Source: Turneriellaceae bacterium
Lineage (GTDB): Bacteria; Spirochaetota; Leptospiria; Turneriellales; JAOUFE01
Reading direction: 5' to 3'
NCBI GenBank assembly: GCA_050304475.1
Contig: JBNLDQ010000003.1
Location: 143,833-207,832, forward strand
DNA length: 64,000 nt
Positions 9,570 through 18,326 of this stretch are shown piece after piece. Numbering within the stretch: the stretch's first letter is position 1; each line of letters opens with the position of its first letter. Both the position numbers and the translations under genes were made by a program. A model generated the notes under the pieces. It was given only the letters and a program-made list of their open reading frames with translations, did not search any database and was not told the DNA's origin.

Positions 9570-10225
9570 TGGAAATGATACATAGAACGAGCCGCCGCAT
9601 AGGCTTTGCGCTTTTGCGCAGGTGCGTTAAAAACGTGAAAGCAGAGACAAAAAATCACCCGCAAGCAATATCATTTTGCTTCTCGGCGATAGCCATGATT
9701 TTTGTTTTGTTTTATTCCCCGTCAGACAAAGCGGTAAAAGACCGCGACATCGCCAATGCGTTTCGCATGGTCAATATCGAGAAAATCGCTTTACCGAAAA
9801 GAAAGACAAAAAAACAGATCGACGTAAACGCGGAAAAAGAGACGGTTCCCGATGAGACCGAACGCGCCGAAGGGTTGAGCGAGTCCGAAGACGCGGTAGA
9901 CCTCTCTTTTTTTCCGAATGTTGTCCCCCCTCGCCCGGTCGGAAAACTGCAAAAAATTTACCCGGAAGAGGCGCGCCGGCGCGAGGTAGAAGCGACAGTC
10001 TACGTCAGATTGTTGATCGGTAAAAAGGGCGAAGTACAAACGGCGCAAGTGTTAGCCACCCATTTGAGCAAATCTCTCCCCCAGGATGCAGCCGAAACGC
10101 TAAAGGCAAAGTTTGCCGGGGCCGCCGTGAAAATATTACAAAATGCAAGATTCAGCCCGCCCATTGTCGACGGGAAACATGTATCTATTGTAATGGAGAT
10201 GCCGTTAAAATTTGAGTTAAATTAA
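9566..10225 (+). CDS. tonB: TonB-family energy transducer (C-terminal TonB domain)
   Basis: ATGA overlap with the upstream exbD. One N-terminal TM and a charged linker. C-terminal PPRPVGKLQKIYPEEARRREVEATVYVRLLIGKKGEVQTAQV...FSPPIVDGKHV is typical of the TonB C-terminal domain. Confidence 0.8.
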   Translation: MMEMIHRTSRRIGFALLRRCVKNVKAETKNHPQAISFCFSAIAMIFVLFYSPSDKAVKDRDIANAFRMVNIEKIALPKRKTKKQIDVNAEKETVPDETERAEGLSESEDAVDLSFFPNVVPPRPVGKLQKIYPEEARRREVEATVYVRLLIGKKGEVQTAQVLATHLSKSLPQDAAETLKAKFAGAAVKILQNARFSPPIVDGKHVSIVMEMPLKFELN

Positions 10226-10251
10226 ACGAAATGACAGCCGTTTTTTGTCGC

Positions 10252-11127
10252 TCATGCATGATCATAAAAAGCCAACACTTCGGCAGCCCTTTGCGAAACA
10301 AAGGCGCTGCCTTCTTTTTTCGCCAACGGAATGATTGTGTTGTTTATTTTTCTTTCAAGATCCCAGCCGGCGTTGGGCTTGCGCTTGCTTCGCAACAGGT
10401 CAAGCGCCCTGCTTAACCGTATCTCTTTTACATTTTCTCTTTTCAGCAGCCACAAAATTTCAAGAAAATCGGATTGATACATATTCGGGAAAGTCAGCTT
10501 TTTAATGTTCGTATGCAGAAAGTTTGATTTTTCATGAGAAGAAAAACAAACCTCATGGCGCAAAATAAAATCAATGCAATTGCCCAGCAAACGCTGCGCG
10601 CTCTTTGTTCTGTTTTTGCGCGGAACAAATGATAAACCTTTCAGAAGTTTTACAACCCCCCAAAAACAGGTATGCCTGCCATAGCAACTCCGGTTAGAGT
10701 AATAAGGAGCGCCGGCCGGGGTTTTATAATCGCCGTCATCAAACCGTTGGTACAAAACAAAAAAATCAATCGCCTTGTTTACCGTTTCGGTCTGGTTCAT
10801 CTTAAAATATTGCAGCAGATAAATCATATTGCCATTTAAACACGGGATCGGAAAATGAGATTTGCCTATCGTAAAAATATTGTTTTTTTGATCGTAAAAA
10901 TGGTTTGCAATGGCTGTTAGCGGTTTTTTTAGTTTTTCATTTTCGGCCGGGCTTTGTATGTCGGCAAGAAAAATCAGGGTCCAAAGTGTGGCGCTATAGA
11001 CAGGGCTGTAGTGCTTAAACCCGGGGTACCCCTTCTCTTTTTCGTTGAGCACATTCCAGCAACCCGTTTCATCTTGCAATTTTATAATATCATTAGTGAT
11101 TTTTTCAATAAGAGAGTTCAGGTCCAT
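10252..11127 (-). CDS. Alpha/alpha-toroid-like (squalene-cyclase / prenyltransferase repeat-like) protein of unknown function
   Basis: N-terminal LQDETGCW fits the QW motif Q-x3-G-x-W, and C-terminal KPNAGWDL is a related repeat. Regularly spaced aromatic-rich helices (ATLWTLIFLADI, NGNMIYLLQYF, AIDFFVLYQRF, CFWGVVKLLKGL, SDFLEILWLLK). The functional assignment is tentative. Confidence 0.6.
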   Translation of the reverse strand: MDLNSLIEKITNDIIKLQDETGCWNVLNEKEKGYPGFKHYSPVYSATLWTLIFLADIQSPAENEKLKKPLTAIANHFYDQKNNIFTIGKSHFPIPCLNGNMIYLLQYFKMNQTETVNKAIDFFVLYQRFDDGDYKTPAGAPYYSNRSCYGRHTCFWGVVKLLKGLSFVPRKNRTKSAQRLLGNCIDFILRHEVCFSSHEKSNFLHTNIKKLTFPNMYQSDFLEILWLLKRENVKEIRLSRALDLLRSKRKPNAGWDLERKINNTIIPLAKKEGSAFVSQRAAEVLAFYDHA

Positions 11128-11265
11128 TTTTATATCGCCATTTTAAGCAAACCAAGACTCAAACGGCGTAAGGCGAATGTAAAGCGAAAATCAATATTGC
11201 AATGACCCCCGCATTCGTGAAGCCGTCTAATAGCAAACGTGGTCCTGCAAGCCGCTTCAGGTTGA

Positions 11266-12066
11266 TCATCCCTTTAACAAGGGCAACGCATTCATAAAAA
11301 CCGCCCCCGTAAGCCACGTTGTAACAAATACTACAATCGCGCCGCTTACCGGGAAAAAACTTTGAGCCGTTGTTACGGCGCCGGCTTCAACCATATGGCT
11401 TACGACAAGGCCCGAGATACTCATGCAAAGGGTCAGGTAAAAAAGAGAAACCGCCAACCCAACGGCCCGGGGGCGTGTACGCAGGTAAAATATAAGCGGG
11501 CGATATGGCGCTTTGGCGTAGAGCCGGGACAGAAAAGCTTCTCCGTCTTTTTGCGGGAAAGGGAGCAGCGCATAGAGAGCAATGAAATCAATGGCAATCA
11601 TGGCCGCAATGGCAGGCGCGGTGGCAGGCCCGCCAAAGGCATAGCCAAAGGAAGCTGAAAGCGATGCAAAGAGCAGTTGAAAAAAAACGCCCGCCAACGG
11701 CAGGGTTACCGGTAGCATCGTATTTGTTTCCGTGTCTATCCGATATGACGAGATTGCGAACAGTTGAAAACCCTTCAGACAGATCATCGCTCGGTGGTCC
11801 TTGCGGTAGACGGAAGCAACGATATGACCCAACTCATGAACATACATTGAAATGATAATGAGCCCGGTCACGAGCAAGCCGGACAAAATAGAGCCCTCCA
11901 TGATACCGGCAAAGTGAACCCGAGACAGGAGATAACATTGTACGGCAACCGCCAGCGCAAGAAGAGGGGCGATCCTGTATTTTTGCAGCCAGGGCGAAAC
12001 CACGGGATAATAGCGAGATGGGTTTTGCAGCAAAAAAAGAATTTTTATCGTTTTATCGCTCATCAA
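11266..12066 (-). CDS. Polytopic membrane zinc metalloprotease, M50 / site-2-protease-like (candidate leader peptidase)
   Basis: HExxH within a TM helix (ISMYVHELGHIVASVY) and a downstream LLPFPQKDGE resembling the S2P NxxPxxxLDG motif. Six or more hydrophobic segments. Confidence 0.75.
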   Translation of the reverse strand: MMSDKTIKILFLLQNPSRYYPVVSPWLQKYRIAPLLALAVAVQCYLLSRVHFAGIMEGSILSGLLVTGLIIISMYVHELGHIVASVYRKDHRAMICLKGFQLFAISSYRIDTETNTMLPVTLPLAGVFFQLLFASLSASFGYAFGGPATAPAIAAMIAIDFIALYALLPFPQKDGEAFLSRLYAKAPYRPLIFYLRTRPRAVGLAVSLFYLTLCMSISGLVVSHMVEAGAVTTAQSFFPVSGAIVVFVTTWLTGAVFMNALPLLKG

Positions 12067-12094
12067 CCTTTGGCCCCTCTTTTATAAAAGCGGT

Positions 12095-13552
12095 TCAACA
12101 AGCCTGCGAGCCCGCCTCTATAAAGCCTTTTTTAGCGCCTTTAGTCTCTTTGCAAGAGCAGCTCTTTCCTTTTTTCTCTTGCTTTTTCTCAAGCAGATGT
12201 TCGGCTTCTAAAAAAAGGTCGGGCGCTTTTGCCTGGAACGTTTCTTTAAATTCAAAACAGTGCGGCGCATTTAATTTACCGGAAGCCAACTCAGCCTGAT
12301 GAGCGCACCCGCCGGCGCAAAGAAAAATATATTCGCACTCCAGGCATTCGGGAATCGAAGCGGCGTCCCGCCCTTCCCATTCCTTGAGTCTTTCTTCCCC
12401 CAGGTTAAAATCAGGGTGGTAGAAACCGGTTTTGCGCTCCTGTACGCCAAGCTCGTCCCAGCAAGAGTAGATATTTCCGTCTGCGGCAAAAATGTACGTG
12501 TTCCGGTGCGCGCCGCACGGGTTCGCCTTAAGACCGGGGAACTTTGCATTTGAAAAGAGCAACGACTTGAAAACACCCAAAGAAGCAAAGCCGGTAGAGA
12601 GCATATTGGGTAAAATTTTTTCCCCCAGGCCTTCTATTGTTTTCTGCAAGCTCATCGGTGTAACGCGTTTTTTAGTCGCGGTTGCAGTGTGGGTGGGGTG
12701 CGCATATGGGCGGAAAAATTCATACTTATACCAACCTTGAGAAACATAAAACCGGTGCAGTTCTTCCAGTTTTTCGATATTATTGCTATCGACATTGCTT
12801 CGGACCGATACACTGCATCCTTTTTTAAGGGCAAGGTCGATGCCGTTACACACTTGTTGAAAAGATTTGCTCTTCTTTACGCCATAGCGCCGGTTGTCAT
12901 GAACTTCTTCGGGGCCATCCAGAGTAACCTGCATCGACCGGATTTTATCTTTACCCAAAAGATCTTCGTAATGCGGCAGGTCAACGCCGTTGGTTACGGC
13001 AAAAAAAGAAAACCCCAGAGAGTTCCCTTTTTCGAGAATATACTTTACCAGCTCATGATTCTCCGCCATCAAGGGTTCGCCGCCATACAGGGTAATTGTC
13101 TTTTCATGCTTCCGGTATTTTTTTGTTAGCCCGGTAATCGCTTTAAACATAGAGTCAACATGGGCTTTTGTCATCGTCTGGCGTTTTTCTTCGACGTTTT
13201 CCCGGATCACGGGTTTTTCATAACAATAGCTGCACCGCAGTTGGCACCCCAATGTCGGGGCGATAATGAAACCGGTCGTCTTTTGCGAACTTTGGTTGAG
13301 AAGCGTTGATATTTTTTTTACCAGCGCTTGCTCTTCGGAAACGCTTTTAGAAGTCAAATACCCGCGGGTAACCAGTTGCTTGACGGTACTCGGGTCAAGA
13401 TCATCCGGGCTATCGTTTTGAAGCGACTCCAGCACGGCAATATCCACCTTATCTACCGCGCCGGAATAGCCCTGGATCAAAACTCCGAATTTTTTTTGAA
13501 GCACAGGCGTATAGATATTATACGAGCTGGCTCGAAGCGCACTTACCTTCAT
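12095..13552 (-). CDS. Radical SAM / SPASM-domain peptide maturase
   Basis: CxxxCxxC cluster motif (GCQLRCSYC). GGEPL motif (LYGGEPLM). Complete SPASM pattern C-x12-G-x4-C (CGAHRNTYIFAADGNIYSC) then C-x2-C-x5-C-x3-C (CLECEYIFLCAGGC) with a later Cys (PHCFEF). About 95 aa of N-terminal extension before the rSAM core, RRE/PqqD-like in position. Confidence 0.9.
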   Translation of the reverse strand: MKVSALRASSYNIYTPVLQKKFGVLIQGYSGAVDKVDIAVLESLQNDSPDDLDPSTVKQLVTRGYLTSKSVSEEQALVKKISTLLNQSSQKTTGFIIAPTLGCQLRCSYCYEKPVIRENVEEKRQTMTKAHVDSMFKAITGLTKKYRKHEKTITLYGGEPLMAENHELVKYILEKGNSLGFSFFAVTNGVDLPHYEDLLGKDKIRSMQVTLDGPEEVHDNRRYGVKKSKSFQQVCNGIDLALKKGCSVSVRSNVDSNNIEKLEELHRFYVSQGWYKYEFFRPYAHPTHTATATKKRVTPMSLQKTIEGLGEKILPNMLSTGFASLGVFKSLLFSNAKFPGLKANPCGAHRNTYIFAADGNIYSCWDELGVQERKTGFYHPDFNLGEERLKEWEGRDAASIPECLECEYIFLCAGGCAHQAELASGKLNAPHCFEFKETFQAKAPDLFLEAEHLLEKKQEKKGKSCSCKETKGAKKGFIEAGSQAC

Positions 13553-13573
13553 TTTATACCATTTATATCGACT

Positions 13574-14053
13574 CTAATCAATGTCGACCAGAAGATCGTT
13601 TACGCCAATACCGATTTCACCGGGCTGCAAGCCGGTATTTGACGTCAATTGCTCTTCAAGCTCGGCCCATTTTTTATCTTTGCGGGCTTGTATCATTTTT
13701 TTCTTGTCATTGACCCTGGTAAAAGAAAGGTACAGCGGGGTCGGCCTGTCAAGGTTAGAGCTTTTTTTCACCAACCGGTAGACGCTGACCGAATCGATCC
13801 CTTCTTCATTGTCCAACCATGCAAGCGCATCGTTTACGGCTTTTTCCGTTTGAACCCTGTCGCCCTGTTTCGGGCTGATGGGCGTAATCACGGTAAAAGG
13901 GGTGAGATGCAAGACATCGCCGAGATCTTCCTTAATTTGCTTTTTCGCCGCCTGGCGGCTCTCTTCGTATACTTTTCTTTTTTTGGTCTGCCCTTCTTCT
14001 TTGTGAAGATTGAGGTGTTTGGTAATTTTATCAATGCGCTCTTTTCGTGCCAT
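13574..14053 (-). CDS. Hypothetical protein (159 aa), distant paralog of the 14511..14984 product
   Basis: Start moved to ATG 14053, which has SD AAGGA 7 nt upstream. The longer 14203 start would overlap the precursor gene by 98 nt. Lys-rich N-terminus. By-eye similarity to the 157-aa neighbour. Confidence 0.7.
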   Translation of the reverse strand: MARKERIDKITKHLNLHKEEGQTKKRKVYEESRQAAKKQIKEDLGDVLHLTPFTVITPISPKQGDRVQTEKAVNDALAWLDNEEGIDSVSVYRLVKKSSNLDRPTPLYLSFTRVNDKKKMIQARKDKKWAELEEQLTSNTGLQPGEIGIGVNDLLVDID

Positions 14054-14105
14054 ATTATTTTCCTTAATTATAAATGATGATTGCCAATTGTTTGCGCTTT
14101 TAACG

Positions 14106-14468
14106 TCAGCTGGAAGCCATAAAGCAATCGCTGCCGCAACTGCCAAAATCGACATAACATTGTGTGCCGCATTGCGAGCATATGTCACCAATGGCGCATG
14201 CATCGGCCGTACAGTTCGTTACGCAATCGGACATGCAAGAGCAGTCCATCATACATGAGAGGTCCATGCTACATCCGGTCGCAGTCGATGTTAAGCTGCC
14301 GGCCTCATCCGAAAAATCCAGGGGACAACTCGTGCTGATCGGTTCGATGCGCAATTGCGTTTGTTGAGAATCCCCGGAATCGAGCATTTGTTCAAGCTGC
14401 TCAACGCTGACATTGTCAAATAATGTTTTGTTTAACGGTTTTAATTGATTTTCGTTTTTCTTTTCCAT
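14106..14468 (-). CDS. Cysteine-rich RiPP precursor-like peptide (120 aa; 13 Cys in the C-terminal 73 residues; C-x-x-D/N repeats)
   Basis: SD GAAGGA 7 nt upstream of the ATG. Cys-free leader-like N-terminus MEKKNENQLKPLNKTLFDNVSVEQLEQMLDSG. Core SCPLDFSDEAGSLTSTATGCSMDLSCMMDCSCMSDCVTNCTADACAIGDICSQCGTQCYVDFGSCGSDCFMASS. Lies two genes upstream of the rSAM/SPASM gene. Confidence 0.8.
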   Translation of the reverse strand: MEKKNENQLKPLNKTLFDNVSVEQLEQMLDSGDSQQTQLRIEPISTSCPLDFSDEAGSLTSTATGCSMDLSCMMDCSCMSDCVTNCTADACAIGDICSQCGTQCYVDFGSCGSDCFMASS

Positions 14469-14510
14469 TCTTAATCCTTCGTTAATCGTTTGTTGCCGGT
14501 AATTCTGTCG

Positions 14511-14984
14511 TTAAATTAAACCTAGCAATGTTCCGTTGACAACAGATTGACCGTCGTCCATTTTTTTCTTCTCCGAACAAAGGGCCGAAATTTGTTTTTC
14601 AATTTGCGACAAGTTCGGGCTATTGGCCGCTTTTTTCATCGCGCCCCGGTGGCGTGCAATAATGATCATGACCAACTCGGGCTCTGCAAGCCGGTTGTTT
14701 TTCCCTTCATTCACCTTCTCATAGAGCATGACATAGTTAATGCTCTTTTCTTGTTCAAGAATAGCAACCGCCTCAACAAGCAAATCGAGAACATCTTGTT
14801 TTTTACCGTCAAGTGGCTGAAACGGCCACTTGTAAAAAACGGGAGATTTTTCCAGAATAAATTCGTAATCTTTTTTAATCTCCTTTGCGGTCTCTATTTT
14901 CGCTTCTTTGATAAAATCATCAAAACCGGGTTTACCGCGGTAATTGTCGATTTGCGTTTTTATGGTTTGCGCGTAGTCCTGCAT
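14511..14984 (-). CDS. Hypothetical protein (157 aa), first gene of the operon, distant paralog of the 13574..14053 product
   Basis: SD GGAGG 4-5 nt upstream of the ATG. No recognisable motif. Confidence 0.75.
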   Translation of the reverse strand: MQDYAQTIKTQIDNYRGKPGFDDFIKEAKIETAKEIKKDYEFILEKSPVFYKWPFQPLDGKKQDVLDLLVEAVAILEQEKSINYVMLYEKVNEGKNNRLAEPELVMIIIARHRGAMKKAANSPNLSQIEKQISALCSEKKKMDDGQSVVNGTLLGLI

Positions 14985-15412
14985 AGACCCTCCGAAATTA
15001 TTAACATTTATCTACGAAAGTGCTGTGTCTTTGCGGGTAAAAACAAAGACATACCAGATTTGACCAAGAGTTAAAAAAAAGAAAACATTTTAATACGTAT
15101 TTTGTTATTATTTCTGCGTATCATTTTACTTTTATCTTTAACTATATCGCTGTTGATATCATATTGGCATTAATCATAGACTGAGGATATATTTATCATC
15201 CCCCTGTGCCGGCACAACATTAATTTTAAAATTTATTAAATCCTTAGGAAAAAGAGTAAAAATGTCAATTTTTCTATTATAGTTTTAGAATTGCAGAATT
15301 GGCAAAGTTTCTCATTTGTGCCAGGCTGTGCCCGGCTGCAAAACGCACTCAAAATGGAGGAGGCCCGCCAGGCGTTTGAGAAATACTACGCGATTTCCGC
15401 GGGATCGTTTTT

Positions 15413-16177
15413 TTAGCACCCGCCGCCAATCGCGACGTACAGACCCATCTCTTGATCCGTTTCAATATGCAGACAATCGCCCTGATCTACGCACCCGTCA
15501 GGCGCACCGTAAATGCATTGATAGTAATGATCTTTCCAGTATTCGTCAGACTCCAGCTTGAATTCAAAATCTTTATACCGCGAGTCCATATTGACGCCAA
15601 TTAAAAATGCCTCTTGAAACGTATAATCGGGTAGATACAGGCGTTCGCCAAAAGACTCATATCCGGTATATTCGGACAAAATAATATTCTTCTCGAATTT
15701 TGTAATGAGTTGTTTCAAATAGGCATCGCTTTGCCGCTCTTCCGTGCCGCCTTCTTCAATAACATGGGTTTTCTCTGTTTGCCGAAAAGTTGCAAAGGCA
15801 TAGTCTTTTATCGATCGAATATCATATTTCGGGCCTTTTAAGCGTGATAAAAACCCTGAAAAGATATAACCCGTCTTACCCTCGAAATTTACTTTTGCCC
15901 AATAGTTTTCCAAACCTTGAAATGTGCTTTTTACTTTTGTAAATTCAAGCACCTGAACCGTTGCATTATACGGTAGCAAACCCCGTTTTTCGGATTTACT
16001 GTCCGGTTGCTTTCTAACGCTTAATCCCGAATGCGCTAAAACAAAGTATTGGCTTGATTGATAAAAACTTTTATCAGGCAGATTCGGTACAACCGGTTTT
16101 GCGCCGGTTATGACAAAAAAAGCGACAATAAAGAATGCCGGCATACCGGCCGATTTATACACTTTAGGATTTGCCAT
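15413..16177 (-). CDS. SH3b-domain-containing membrane-anchored or secreted protein
   Basis: N-terminal hydrophobic anchor (MPAFFIVAFFVITGA). Bacterial SH3-like segment GLSVRKQPDSKSEKRGLLPYNATVQVLE...YWAKVNFEGKTGYIFSGFL. Confidence 0.7.
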   Translation of the reverse strand: MANPKVYKSAGMPAFFIVAFFVITGAKPVVPNLPDKSFYQSSQYFVLAHSGLSVRKQPDSKSEKRGLLPYNATVQVLEFTKVKSTFQGLENYWAKVNFEGKTGYIFSGFLSRLKGPKYDIRSIKDYAFATFRQTEKTHVIEEGGTEERQSDAYLKQLITKFEKNIILSEYTGYESFGERLYLPDYTFQEAFLIGVNMDSRYKDFEFKLESDEYWKDHYYQCIYGAPDGCVDQGDCLHIETDQEMGLYVAIGGGC

Positions 16178-16460
16178 AATTTGCCATTGAGGTCATTTCA
16201 ATCGCCCCGCGCCAAAAAATCAAATTCCGGGTTGATGTCAAAATCAATTTTGCTTCTTCTTGCTGTGCAAAAACCGCAATGACACCCCATACAACGGCCT
16301 AACGCCCCGAAAAAAGGTTCATCTATGACGTAACAAAGACCGAAATATAATAGATAGAAAAAACTTGCGAGAAAAGATGCCGCTGATTTGTCGGGTGCAT
16401 GGTTGAGTTGGCGCAAGATTGGATTGACGAATGAGTAAAAATATGGCGGTTGGTTTATAG

Positions 16461-18326
16461 ATGGACAAAGCTGAGAGCAATCGAATTTTCAAGATCATAT
16501 TGTCCGGATATACGGCGCCGCTCGTAATATGGATGGGGATCGTTTGGTTTCTGGATATCGCCACATCGAACGATATCATTTCCATGTTTACGAACCTCCA
16601 GGGGCCGCTTTTATTCACCATTCTTATCTCGCTGGTAGCCTACCAGGCTTCGCGCATGCTGCACCAAATCGTTGATGCCAAGGCCTCCCCGAACGATCCG
16701 GAAAAAACGGACAAAGCCCAGAGAGCGCTGGCTCGCATTCCCCGCTACTTTCTTTATTCTTTTCCGGTTATCTCGTTAACCACGCCGGCAGCCATGATTG
16801 GCGGGATCTACGAGTTTACCTCATTTAATTACGCCTACTGCATCTCTCTTTATTTTTTTACCGCATTTATTATTTCAGCGTCCTTCTTTATTCAAATGGT
16901 CATTAACCTGGAAAAATGGGGGCGCAGTATCCCGCTTTCCCGGAAATACAACGACCTGAACATCGGGGACAAATTTAATTTGATACTGACCCCTCATTTC
17001 ATTGCGGTGATCTTTATTATACTAACGTCAATGCTGGCGATTGCAGACAATAATGCCGAAAGTAATGACCTTCATTATTTGCTCCTGGTCAAGTCTTCGG
17101 TAATGGCCGCCATTTTTCTGGGCATTATTTTTGTGAACCTCTACAGCATGCAAAACATGCTGCTCACGCCCGTACGAAAACTTCATGAAACCATGAGAAA
17201 TATTGTTCGCGGAAAAATGAATATTGCTTCCCGAATGGATTACAATACGCGGGACGAGCTGGCATACACGGCGATCTTTTTTAACGATTTTATGTCCAGG
17301 CTTTTTAATACCATTAAAAATATTCAAATGACCTCGTATGATATTGAAGATTTTACTCTAAAGCTTGACTTAAATTCGAAAAAGTATCGTTATAACGCGC
17401 AAAAAGAAGACGACGCTATTAGCGATATCGCGCGTAACCTTGGTTTTGTACAAAATTCGTTGCATGAGATGCTCCAAGCCAGCTCTGCCCAAAGCGATAA
17501 AATCGAATCTATCATCACCGAAATGACAAAAGCGGCCGAGTACGGCGACGAACTGATTGAAGAGCTTGAAAAAAGCAACGAAGAAGTCGTCCGGACAACC
17601 ACCATCGCGCAAGCCGGCGAAAACTCCATGAATACCATGCGAAACACAATGGAACAAATTCATAACGTCTTTATTGAAATTGCAGAAGTGCTGACTTTTA
17701 TCAATGATGTCGCCGAAAAAATTAACCTGCTATCGTTGAACGCATCCATTGAAGCGGCGCGCGCAGGGGATCTGGGCATGGGCTTTTCCGTTGTCGCACA
17801 GCAAATTGCGCGGCTTGCCGAAGAAACGAAAAAAAGCGTGTCGAACATCAACCGCCTGCTGGAAAACAGCGACGAAGCCATTAAAACGGGATCGGATCAA
17901 ATTCTAAGCGGGGCGCACACGGTATTGACTCTCTTGCAGGGCGTTGAAAACATTGAAAAACTTTTTGGTAAGCTCTTCTTTGCCTTAAAAGAAGAGTTGG
18001 GTGTCTTTAAAAAAGTCGAGCACAACGTCCATGATGTAAAAATGGACGCGGCAACGATGGAGCGCGTAACCGGCGCTTTCCAGGAAAAGGTCCAGTTGAT
18101 TGAAGAAATTTTATCCAATGTGACAGATTACAGCAAAGGCACTCTCGAAGCGACCAATGAAATTTCCGCTTCGGCAGTAAACAACAAACGCATTGTCAAT
18201 AGCCTGAAAAAGAAAGTTACGTTTTTTCAAGTGGAAAAAACCGAAAAGAAGCAGGCCCCCGATCCGGAAAAAAAGCCTGCAACGGTTCAAGCCCCGGTAA
18301 AGACAAGTGAGAAAAAAGTCAGTTAG
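16461..18326 (+). CDS. Methyl-accepting chemotaxis protein with a multi-TM N-terminal sensor region
   Basis: HAMP-like linker (LLTPVRKLHETMRNIVRGKMNIASRMDYNTRDELAYTAIFFNDFMSRL) and the highly conserved MCP signalling hairpin INLLSLNASIEAARAGDLGMGFSVVAQQIARLAEET. Confidence 0.9.
   Translation: MDKAESNRIFKIILSGYTAPLVIWMGIVWFLDIATSNDIISMFTNLQGPLLFTILISLVAYQASRMLHQIVDAKASPNDPEKTDKAQRALARIPRYFLYSFPVISLTTPAAMIGGIYEFTSFNYAYCISLYFFTAFIISASFFIQMVINLEKWGRSIPLSRKYNDLNIGDKFNLILTPHFIAVIFIILTSMLAIADNNAESNDLHYLLLVKSSVMAAIFLGIIFVNLYSMQNMLLTPVRKLHETMRNIVRGKMNIASRMDYNTRDELAYTAIFFNDFMSRLFNTIKNIQMTSYDIEDFTLKLDLNSKKYRYNAQKEDDAISDIARNLGFVQNSLHEMLQASSAQSDKIESIITEMTKAAEYGDELIEELEKSNEEVVRTTTIAQAGENSMNTMRNTMEQIHNVFIEIAEVLTFINDVAEKINLLSLNASIEAARAGDLGMGFSVVAQQIARLAEETKKSVSNINRLLENSDEAIKTGSDQILSGAHTVLTLLQGVENIEKLFGKLFFALKEELGVFKKVEHNVHDVKMDAATMERVTGAFQEKVQLIEEILSNVTDYSKGTLEATNEISASAVNNKRIVNSLKKKVTFFQVEKTEKKQAPDPEKKPATVQAPVKTSEKKVS

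Follow-up and report, generated by a model that had tools for sequence, protein, structure and literature searches.

Here we describe a candidate operon for a peptide that is made by the ribosome and modified post-translationally (RiPP) in a 64,000-nucleotide stretch of DNA from a Turneriellaceae bacterium (contig JBNLDQ010000003.1), which we call the window. Six open reading frames (ORFs), named A to F, occupy its minus strand from position 14984 down to 10252. A first-pass annotation of the same DNA had reported six co-directional genes there, with successive gaps of 42, 52, 21, 28 and 138 nt from A to F, and both the coordinates and all five spacings prove exact. Taken together, the first five (A to E; minus strand, 14984 to 11266) amount to a credible RiPP operon, and the RiPP nature of the locus is close to certain. 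We treat A to E as one operon because they are co-directional, lie only 21–52 nt apart and have a ribosome-binding site ahead of A. The products of A, B, C, D and F are identical to public gene calls, each a singleton 90% cluster; E was not in the look-up. The genes and motifs of the operon are listed here.

14511..14984, minus strand: A, accessory protein of 157 aa, first copy of a family with a predicted dimeric alpha+beta-barrel (DABB) fold; directly upstream of B, with a GGAGGG ribosome-binding site
14106..14468, minus strand: B, precursor peptide of 120 aa; the sole ORF of the 64-kb window to join a leader motif to a Cys-rich sequence
14382..14438, minus strand: leader recognition motif PLNKTLFDNVSVEQLEQML, residues 11–29 of B, read from the translation; a motif class common to the clade of D
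14109..14276, minus strand: core region, residues 65–120 of B, with 12 Cys and 7 Asp arranged as six C-x-x-D and one C-x-x-x-D
13574..14053, minus strand: C, accessory protein of 159 aa, second and divergent copy with a predicted DABB fold (AlphaFold2 and Foldseek)
12095..13552, minus strand: D, radical S-adenosylmethionine (SAM)/SPASM peptide maturase of 485 aa; Pfam Radical_SAM at 5.8e-13 and TIGR04085 above its cut-off
13223..13246, minus strand: CQLRCSYC, the CX3CX2C motif of D for the SAM-binding [4Fe-4S] cluster (C103, C107 and C110)
12257..12517, minus strand: SPASM domain of D with seven Cys (CX12GX4C ... CX2CX5CX3C ... C), from the pattern and TIGR04085
11266..12066, minus strand: E, polytopic membrane HExxH protein of 265–266 aa, starting at TTG 12066 or the adjacent ATG 12063
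11824..11838, minus strand: HELGH zinc-binding motif of E, residues 77–81, with H77, E78 and H81 invariant
11542..11562, minus strand: PFPQKDG, second M50-type signature of E, supplying the putative third zinc ligand Asp; P169, P171, D174 and G175 invariant

B contains 13 cysteines, and 12 of them lie within the last 56 residues. Every one of the seven core aspartates sits 3 or 4 residues after a cysteine, and shuffled versions of the core reach six C-x-x-[DE] motifs in about 1 of 10,000 trials. Searches of B against Pfam and NCBIfam gave nothing significant, and no NCBIfam precursor model matched. No second precursor gene was found in the 64-kb window; an additional precursor was considered and rejected, as only B combines the leader motif with a Cys-rich sequence. 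The C-x-x-D core had been put forward as a novelty. That view is not borne out, since Cys-Xn-Asp logic is already that of freyrasin and its maturase PapB, which joins Cys sulfur to the Asp beta-carbon across six CX3D motifs and also tolerates CXnD for n=0–6 (PMC9413430).

D is a radical SAM enzyme with a complete SPASM motif, as had been proposed. C103, C107 and C110 are invariant in a 40-sequence alignment, the seven-Cys SPASM pattern is complete (C346, C364, C403, C406, C412, C416 and C432), and there is no extra Cys between residues 246 and 346. Both domain models exceed their thresholds (PF04055, 49.8 bits against a gathering score of 29.5; TIGR04085 for SPASM, 50.5 bits against a cut-off of 27). 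The best full-length NCBIfam models for D are all maturases of Cys-rich peptides, namely Clo7bot (TIGR04334; 125.8 bits, cut-off 600), TIGR04463 (123.7 bits, cut-off 525), the 'Cys-every-fifth' family CefB (NF038107; 118.6 bits, cut-off 600), a geopeptide model (103 bits, cut-off 400) and PapB (NF047865; 98.2 bits, cut-off 340, aligned over residues 100–430). These peptide-maturase scores lie 3.5 to 5 fold under the curated cut-offs and no named subfamily is reached, nor is any epimerase model found among the 25 best NCBIfam matches of D. The CXXX-repeat radical-SAM target family, named in the first pass as one to check for D, fits poorly (TIGR04115; 48.1 bits, cut-off 350). We also scored and rejected the idea, raised in the same annotation, that D is an anaerobic sulfatase maturase: TIGR03942 gives 74.7 bits against a cut-off of 349, a leader peptide is encoded in the adjacent gene, and D groups with the peptide maturases. 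Solved structures are matched only remotely by sequence (anSME 1.8e-10, ChlB 9.3e-9, CteB 6.8e-8), and the best non-self homologs of D are 37–41% identical to it. The C-terminus of D (about 30 residues, 12095–12190) is a Lys-rich tail with extra cysteines C465, C467 and C485 (...KKGKSCSCKETKGAKKGFIEAGSQAC) and lies outside the conserved family alignment.

The wider family of D was surveyed in 166 maturase-anchored loci from genomes and metagenomes, whose six-frame ORFs were searched with the window proteins and with profiles derived from them. Of these loci, 67 extend 5 kb or more to either side of the maturase and make up the fully flanked set. The clade (loci L001–L170) is large and unnamed, with maturases 29–41% identical to D, and extends over Bacteroidales, Clostridia, Acidobacteriota, cyanobacteria, archaea (Methanotrichaceae) and others. 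Ten sampled clade maturases were compared with NCBIfam and none qualified at any cut-off. At 67 of the 166 loci, small ORFs adjoining the maturase carry the leader motif LNxxLxxxφSφEELExRL, against 0 in a reversed-sequence control, and the taxa that carry it include Bacteroidales, Clostridia, Acidobacteriota and Methanotrichaceae. A homolog of E adjoins the maturase at 87 of the 166 loci, and at 42 of the 67 with full flanks. The proposed logic of the locus, i.e. a precursor plus a radical SAM/SPASM enzyme plus a protease, is supported. The gene-neighbourhood check suggested in the first pass gave a divided answer: the closest loci of other organisms conserve the precursor, accessory protein, radical SAM enzyme and membrane protease together, and do not conserve F with them. 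We found no published description of this system, and no curated model names it. The literature likewise yielded nothing on ranthipeptides with intramembrane proteases or on 'Cys-every-fifth'.

Another recurrent component is a partner protein of ~700 aa, encoded at 35 of the 166 loci and at 16 of the 67 fully flanked ones, e.g. at L083:6965-9088, L085:11748-13868 and L093:4432-6534, and in a split form at L001:9376-10407 plus 11209-12255. Its N-terminal domain has no family match and an invariant DDxxD(W), from which it may be polyprenyl-synthase-like, and its C-terminal domain is a squalene-hopene-cyclase-like toroid (Pfam SQHop_cyclase_C, 1e-17). No NCBIfam model covers the protein, and a profile search of the PDB with the N-terminal domain gave non-significant matches to isoprenyl diphosphate synthases (E about 1). 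It looks like an uncharacterized RiPP tailoring enzyme; our literature search turned up no account of radical SAM RiPPs with squalene-hopene-cyclase or terpene-cyclase partners.

Several loci of this set are worth describing in their own right. A soil metagenome contig (L124:2854-4162) carries three tandem precursors with 12–14 Cys in C-x-x-(D/N/E)-C ladders, e.g. CAPNCAPDCGPNCQPDCGPNC. These are the nearest analogue of the window core, and the L124 maturase is only 31% identical to D. The closest NCBI relative (L083:1600-6900, on the same contig as L091) has at least six paralogous precursor genes. Their leader, ...LSIEELExRLQMEELDxRGEMWTGCGC, is common to all of them, while the Cys/Pro/aromatic cores are hypervariable. 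Immediately after the first radical SAM/SPASM gene comes another, divergent one. In human-gut and oral Bacteroidales (L009, L010, L013–L017, L048, L074 and L137–L144), the loci come from Prevotella, Phocaeicola, Paraprevotella and Tannerella; common to them are the leader ...EELExRLETDPL... and an M50-like protein of ~400 aa. Since such Bacteroidales loci are many, they appear to represent an unstudied RiPP family that is common in the human microbiome. The published mining of Bacteroidales RiPPs deals with a different cluster.

E is hydrophobic throughout, and its transmembrane location was read from the hydrophobic sequence by eye. It fits the two-part M50 signature (HExxH plus PxPxxDG), the invariance of the residues listed above being judged on a four-sequence alignment. 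All four of the aligned family members give weak matches to Pfam Peptidase_M50 (PF02163; best 7e-4), and homologs of E match the YydH/LiaK and daptide HExxH protease models weakly (best 23 bits), while the window E itself matches neither NF058609 (YydH/LiaK, cut-off 225) nor NF041824 (daptide HExxH, cut-off 300). These sequence features point to an M50-like intramembrane metalloprotease and agree with the polytopic HExxH (M50/S2P-like) protease of the first pass. Such a protease had also been counted among the novelties of the locus, and here we disagree. EpeP is the M50 protease of the radical SAM epipeptide operon, for which both cleavage and export have been proposed, and TglG/TmoG are further M50 proteases in RiPP maturation (PMC10885120); daptide pathways, going by the names of NCBIfam models, likewise include an M50-like intramembrane protease. 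Because M50 proteases are established in RiPP maturation, E follows precedent.

The two ~158-aa proteins that bracket the precursor had been called paralogs, and this is confirmed: A and C are distant paralogs with 22% identity over 108 residues (BLASTP E=3e-7). Neither has a sequence match in Pfam or NCBIfam. A word-indexed homolog search with C returned only C itself, an exhaustive HMMER profile search of 1.84 billion representatives found about nine other family members, and phmmer with A against the accessory ORFs of L001–L004 and L083–L086 gave E-values from 2e-14 to 5e-7. Only 11 of the 166 loci, several of them duplicates, contain the family, and all are among those with the closest maturases. 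A single copy stands directly upstream of a precursor gene in L001, L083/L091, L084–L086 and L093, and upstream of the maturase instead in L092. The window is the sole locus seen with two copies.

Modelled with AlphaFold2 from a 10-sequence alignment, C reaches a predicted local distance difference test score (pLDDT) of 74.5, with 80–92 in the core; the model consists of two N-terminal helices followed by a ferredoxin-like domain. Foldseek finds 48 PDB matches to this model at E<=1e-3, the best at E=3e-5 with template modelling (TM) scores of 0.74–0.78 on the target; the top DABB matches are 4zos (YE0340), 1y0h (Rv0793), SnoaB and the ABM family. From this model we assign A and C to the DABB fold. 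Relatives with this fold are obligate dimers. As the fold is dimeric and the window encodes two diverged copies, A and C most likely form a heterodimer. This would handle the precursor or the modified core, a role suggested by the position of the family beside precursor genes and by its conserved residues, which are prolines, glycines and aromatics with no obvious catalytic groups. The frame of C is also open further upstream, to an ATG at 14203 (13574–14203), which would give 209 aa and run 98 nt into the 3′ end of gene B; the start at 14053 is favoured by the public gene call as well as by the alignment of the family.

One more gene follows the operon on the same strand.

10252..11127, minus strand: F, alpha/alpha-toroid protein of 291 aa (fold model) from a separate conserved family; probably outside the operon

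The first pass described F as a QW-motif toroid resembling a terpene cyclase. The toroid stands, with a confident alpha/alpha-toroid model (pLDDT 91), and so do weak fold matches to class II terpene cyclases, squalene-hopene cyclases, complement TED domains and GH76 (8zgw, MstE, 2sqc and 8pak at E=2e-3 to 9e-3, TM about 0.5). A terpene cyclase was nevertheless rejected: F has no DxDD motif, only one QW-like motif, and no match at E<=0.1 in Pfam or NCBIfam, SQHop_cyclase and Prenyltrans included. When F was compared by hhalign with the toroid domain of the RiPP-linked ~700-aa partner, the probability was only 68% (E=4.9e-5). Homologs of F number more than 711, with 52–66% identity among the matches listed, and occur in bacterial phyla and apparently in archaea. 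A hidden Markov model (HMM) of F found nothing in any of the 166 maturase loci, and eight sampled contexts of F homologs have nothing in common, none with a radical SAM or precursor gene. Because F belongs to a separate family, lives in unrelated contexts and is absent from the maturase loci, it is probably a neighbour and not part of the RiPP system, and the six-gene unit of the first pass is not upheld.

The family of F has features of its own. Its sampled homologs (L087–L090 and L171–L178) are ~290-aa toroid proteins with no Pfam or NCBIfam model. Invariant cysteines and histidines (H91, C96, C148, H152, C154, C184, H191 and C194) suggest a metal site. The neighbours vary, with GyrI-like, flavodoxin-like and TetR genes recurring loosely. 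At L171:5190-6876 the F homolog begins 1 nt after the gene of an Rce1-like (CPBP) intramembrane protease; this is a single case and may be chance, but the arrangement echoes that of F after the M50-like protease in the window.

Our preferred reading, to which we give a probability of roughly 0.6, is that A to E make a cross-linked Cys-rich peptide in which D installs thioethers, E performs the cleavage and A and C assist, with F separate. It draws on gene order, motifs, family relations, folds and co-conservation, all of them computed directly, and from these we infer the chemistry, the cleavage, the role of A and C, and export. B is the precursor, with the N-terminal leader PLNKTLFDNVSVEQLEQML common to a large maturase clade, and this leader would be recognized by the N-terminal ~95 residues of D. 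D would cleave SAM at its CX3CX2C cluster, hold the substrate cysteine at an auxiliary cluster and set several intramolecular cross-links in the 56-residue core. The likeliest products are thioethers from Cys sulfur to Asp beta-carbon (ranthionines), up to seven of them, each with a mass change of -2 Da. E would then strip off the leader at the membrane, a cleavage that may be coupled to release in the way suggested for EpeP. A and C, probably as a heterodimer, would bind or handle the precursor or the modified core, and F would be a neighbour of independent function. Ranthionine-type thioethers are the most likely bonds because, as in freyrasin, each aspartate of the core follows a cysteine at a distance of 3 or 4 residues.

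Several observations weigh against this reading. The bond type is assigned by analogy, as no clade member has been characterized and the PapB model, with its cut-off of 340, gives D just 98 bits. The closest precursors (L001, L083 and L084) are Cys-rich but do not keep the regular CxxD spacing; they share EMWTGCGC followed by irregular Cys/Pro/aromatic cores, and what they retain is Cys, Trp, Pro and Gly, so the chemistry of this subclade may not depend on Asp. A scheme of Cys–Asp bonds alone would also leave five or six cysteines of B unpaired. On the side of the other components, the window E scores 8.7 bits (E=1.4) on PF02163 against a gathering score of 27.2, the DABB model of C is of moderate confidence with its N-terminal 50 residues poorly predicted, and the locus has no transporter gene and no immunity gene. 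Finally, every accessory-containing locus with sequence 3′ of the maturase encodes the ~700-aa (or split) partner, except the window, and because this partner is absent the pathway may be incomplete or rewired.

Some of these points lead to the alternative that survives best, in which the locus makes a RiPP with other chemistry. D could form sactionines at alpha-carbons, C–C or C–O links, or epimerize its substrate, and the cysteines could serve as disulfides or metal ligands in a knotted or chelating peptide. The low scores of D and of ten other clade members, all below the cut-offs of every characterized family, would be compatible with this, as would the remoteness of the solved structures, the excess of 12 Cys over 7 Asp, and the closest precursors, which keep Cys, Trp, Pro and Gly rather than regular CxxD. 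Moreover, the best-known pairing of a radical SAM enzyme with an M50 protease, EpeE/EpeP, is an epimerase system. Against it, the Cys-to-Asp register of B is far from chance and C-x-x-(D/N/E) ladders recur in L124, while the top HMM neighbours of D are maturases of Cys-rich targets, including those of thioether-forming PapB and SCIFF, with no epimerase among the 25 best. We consider a different chemistry unlikely, though it deserves to be kept in mind.

Somewhat less likely again is a six-gene system. Here F would be a zinc-dependent toroid that alkylates or cyclizes Cys thiols, in the manner of LanC or the beta subunit of prenyltransferases, and would replace the cyclase-like partner. F is co-directional and next after E, we found no convincing terminator in the 138-nt gap, and its toroid is remotely like the RiPP-linked toroid domain in the hhalign comparison; its invariant Cys and His residues could bind metal. 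A toroid protein is present in every other accessory-containing locus with enough sequence, in L001 directly after the M50 gene, and the L171 homolog follows its intramembrane protease gene by 1 nt. It is still striking to see a toroid after the protease where the lineage has lost its usual partner of that fold. That said, the F family keeps 52–66% identity across phyla, against a ceiling of 41% for relatives of the other five products, and the F HMM is silent at all 166 maturase loci. The eight sampled F contexts share no neighbour with one another or with RiPP genes, and the N-terminal domain that constantly accompanies the RiPP-linked toroid is missing from the window. Compared with the other gaps, the one before F is wider by a factor of three to six, and the low GC content of F and A, at the two ends of the block, is typical of a patchwork accessory region.

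A more ambitious version, in which the locus defines a new RiPP subclass, we regard as improbable. It would combine a ladder of six or seven very small CxxD thioether rings, built by an uncharacterized radical SAM/SPASM clade, with a DABB heterodimer dedicated to chaperoning the precursor or to tailoring it after cross-linking, this fold not being known from RiPP pathways, and with F in place of the cyclase-like partner, modifying free cysteines. Least credible of all is a decayed or orphan cluster that has lost the ~700-aa partner and a second maturase and no longer makes a mature product: all other accessory-containing loci with sequence 3′ of the maturase do keep the N-domain and toroid protein, some keep a second radical SAM gene, and C is present as a second accessory copy without a second precursor gene, but none of the five ORFs is disrupted, each catalytic motif is in place, start codons are present and the ribosome-binding sites are plausible, and most clade loci lack the ~700-aa protein, which makes precursor, radical SAM enzyme and M50 protease a viable minimal set (42 of 67 fully flanked loci have the M50 gene, only 16 the ~700-aa protein).

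The five-gene, thioether-forming operon that we favour can be compared with several known systems. The nearest in logic is PapA/PapB of Paenibacillus polymyxa, which makes the ranthipeptide freyrasin. Both loci pair a radical SAM/SPASM maturase with a leader-bearing precursor, both have a series of Cys-Xn-Asp motifs in the core, six in each case, and D aligns to the PapB model over residues 100–430. D nevertheless falls outside the PapB family, at 98 bits against 340. The spacing is CX2D in the window and CX3D in freyrasin, the window core has 12 Cys per 7 Asp, the leader family differs, and the window adds an M50 membrane protease and two putative DABB proteins. The epipeptide operon epeXEPAB (yydFGHIJ) of Bacillus subtilis (PMC12871923) offers a second likeness, i.e. 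a precursor, a radical SAM/SPASM enzyme and a membrane M50 protease, and a homolog of E weakly matches the YydH/LiaK model. In contrast to the window, the substrate of EpeE/YydG is a peptide free of Cys, and the enzyme is an epimerase. ABC immunity genes are missing from the window, and its E has no significant match to NF058609, with the homolog at 23 bits against a cut-off of 225.

The bioinformatically defined NCBIfam systems Clo7bot, TIGR04463, CefB and CXXX-repeat similarly couple a radical SAM/SPASM enzyme to short, Cys-periodic precursors, and the first three supply the top full-length models for D, with TIGR04115 far weaker. D is 4–5 fold below the cut-offs of these three, however, and B matches none of the NCBIfam precursor models. 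With the unnamed maturase clade the window shares a maturase family at 29–41% identity, the leader motif and an M50-like partner. Even there it stands somewhat apart: the DABB accessory is confined to the closest subclade, and the window alone has two accessory copies and, among accessory-containing loci, no ~700-aa partner. All functional elements save the DABB pair have clear precedent.

New peptide cross-links and peptide-stapling enzymes have proven obtainable from radical SAM/SPASM RiPPs. The present locus draws attention to a large clade that is not named by any curated NCBIfam model and that reaches human-gut Prevotella, Phocaeicola and Tannerella. Because its members carry a recognizable leader motif and a dedicated M50 protease, one characterization would annotate hundreds of loci. 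With five genes, one precursor and a very regular Cys/Asp register, the window is a compact test case. Does it make PapB-like thioethers with tighter rings? If it proves to carry out ordinary ranthionine formation, the result would be incremental. The locus is also a first chance to probe the role of a DABB-fold accessory in a RiPP pathway.

The surroundings of the block agree largely with the first-pass description. F and the convergent TonB gene are separated by 26 nt, and the region 5′ of A is 428 bp long and AT-rich (35% GC), both as reported. The plus-strand genes flanking F encode an ExbB/TolQ-like protein, two ExbD/TolR-like proteins and TonB. With these Ton genes, the PFOR, fumarate reductase and chemotaxis genes also present in the window point to an anaerobic diderm. 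The locus had been called visibly low in GC. Against a window mean of 0.475, only the two end genes fall short (A at 0.42, F at 0.41), and the values for B, C and D (each 0.47) and for E (0.51) match it. Beyond the 428-bp region lies a co-directional gene (15413–16177, minus strand) for an SH3_3-domain protein of 254 aa (4e-12) with a hydrophobic N-terminus, for which we saw no link to the operon. An Rfam scan of positions 9800–16600 found no RNA element. Upstream of A, the best sigma-70-type candidate promoter in the region matches the consensus at 11 of 12 positions.

15276..15305, minus strand: candidate sigma-70-type promoter, TTGCCA-18 nt-TATAAT

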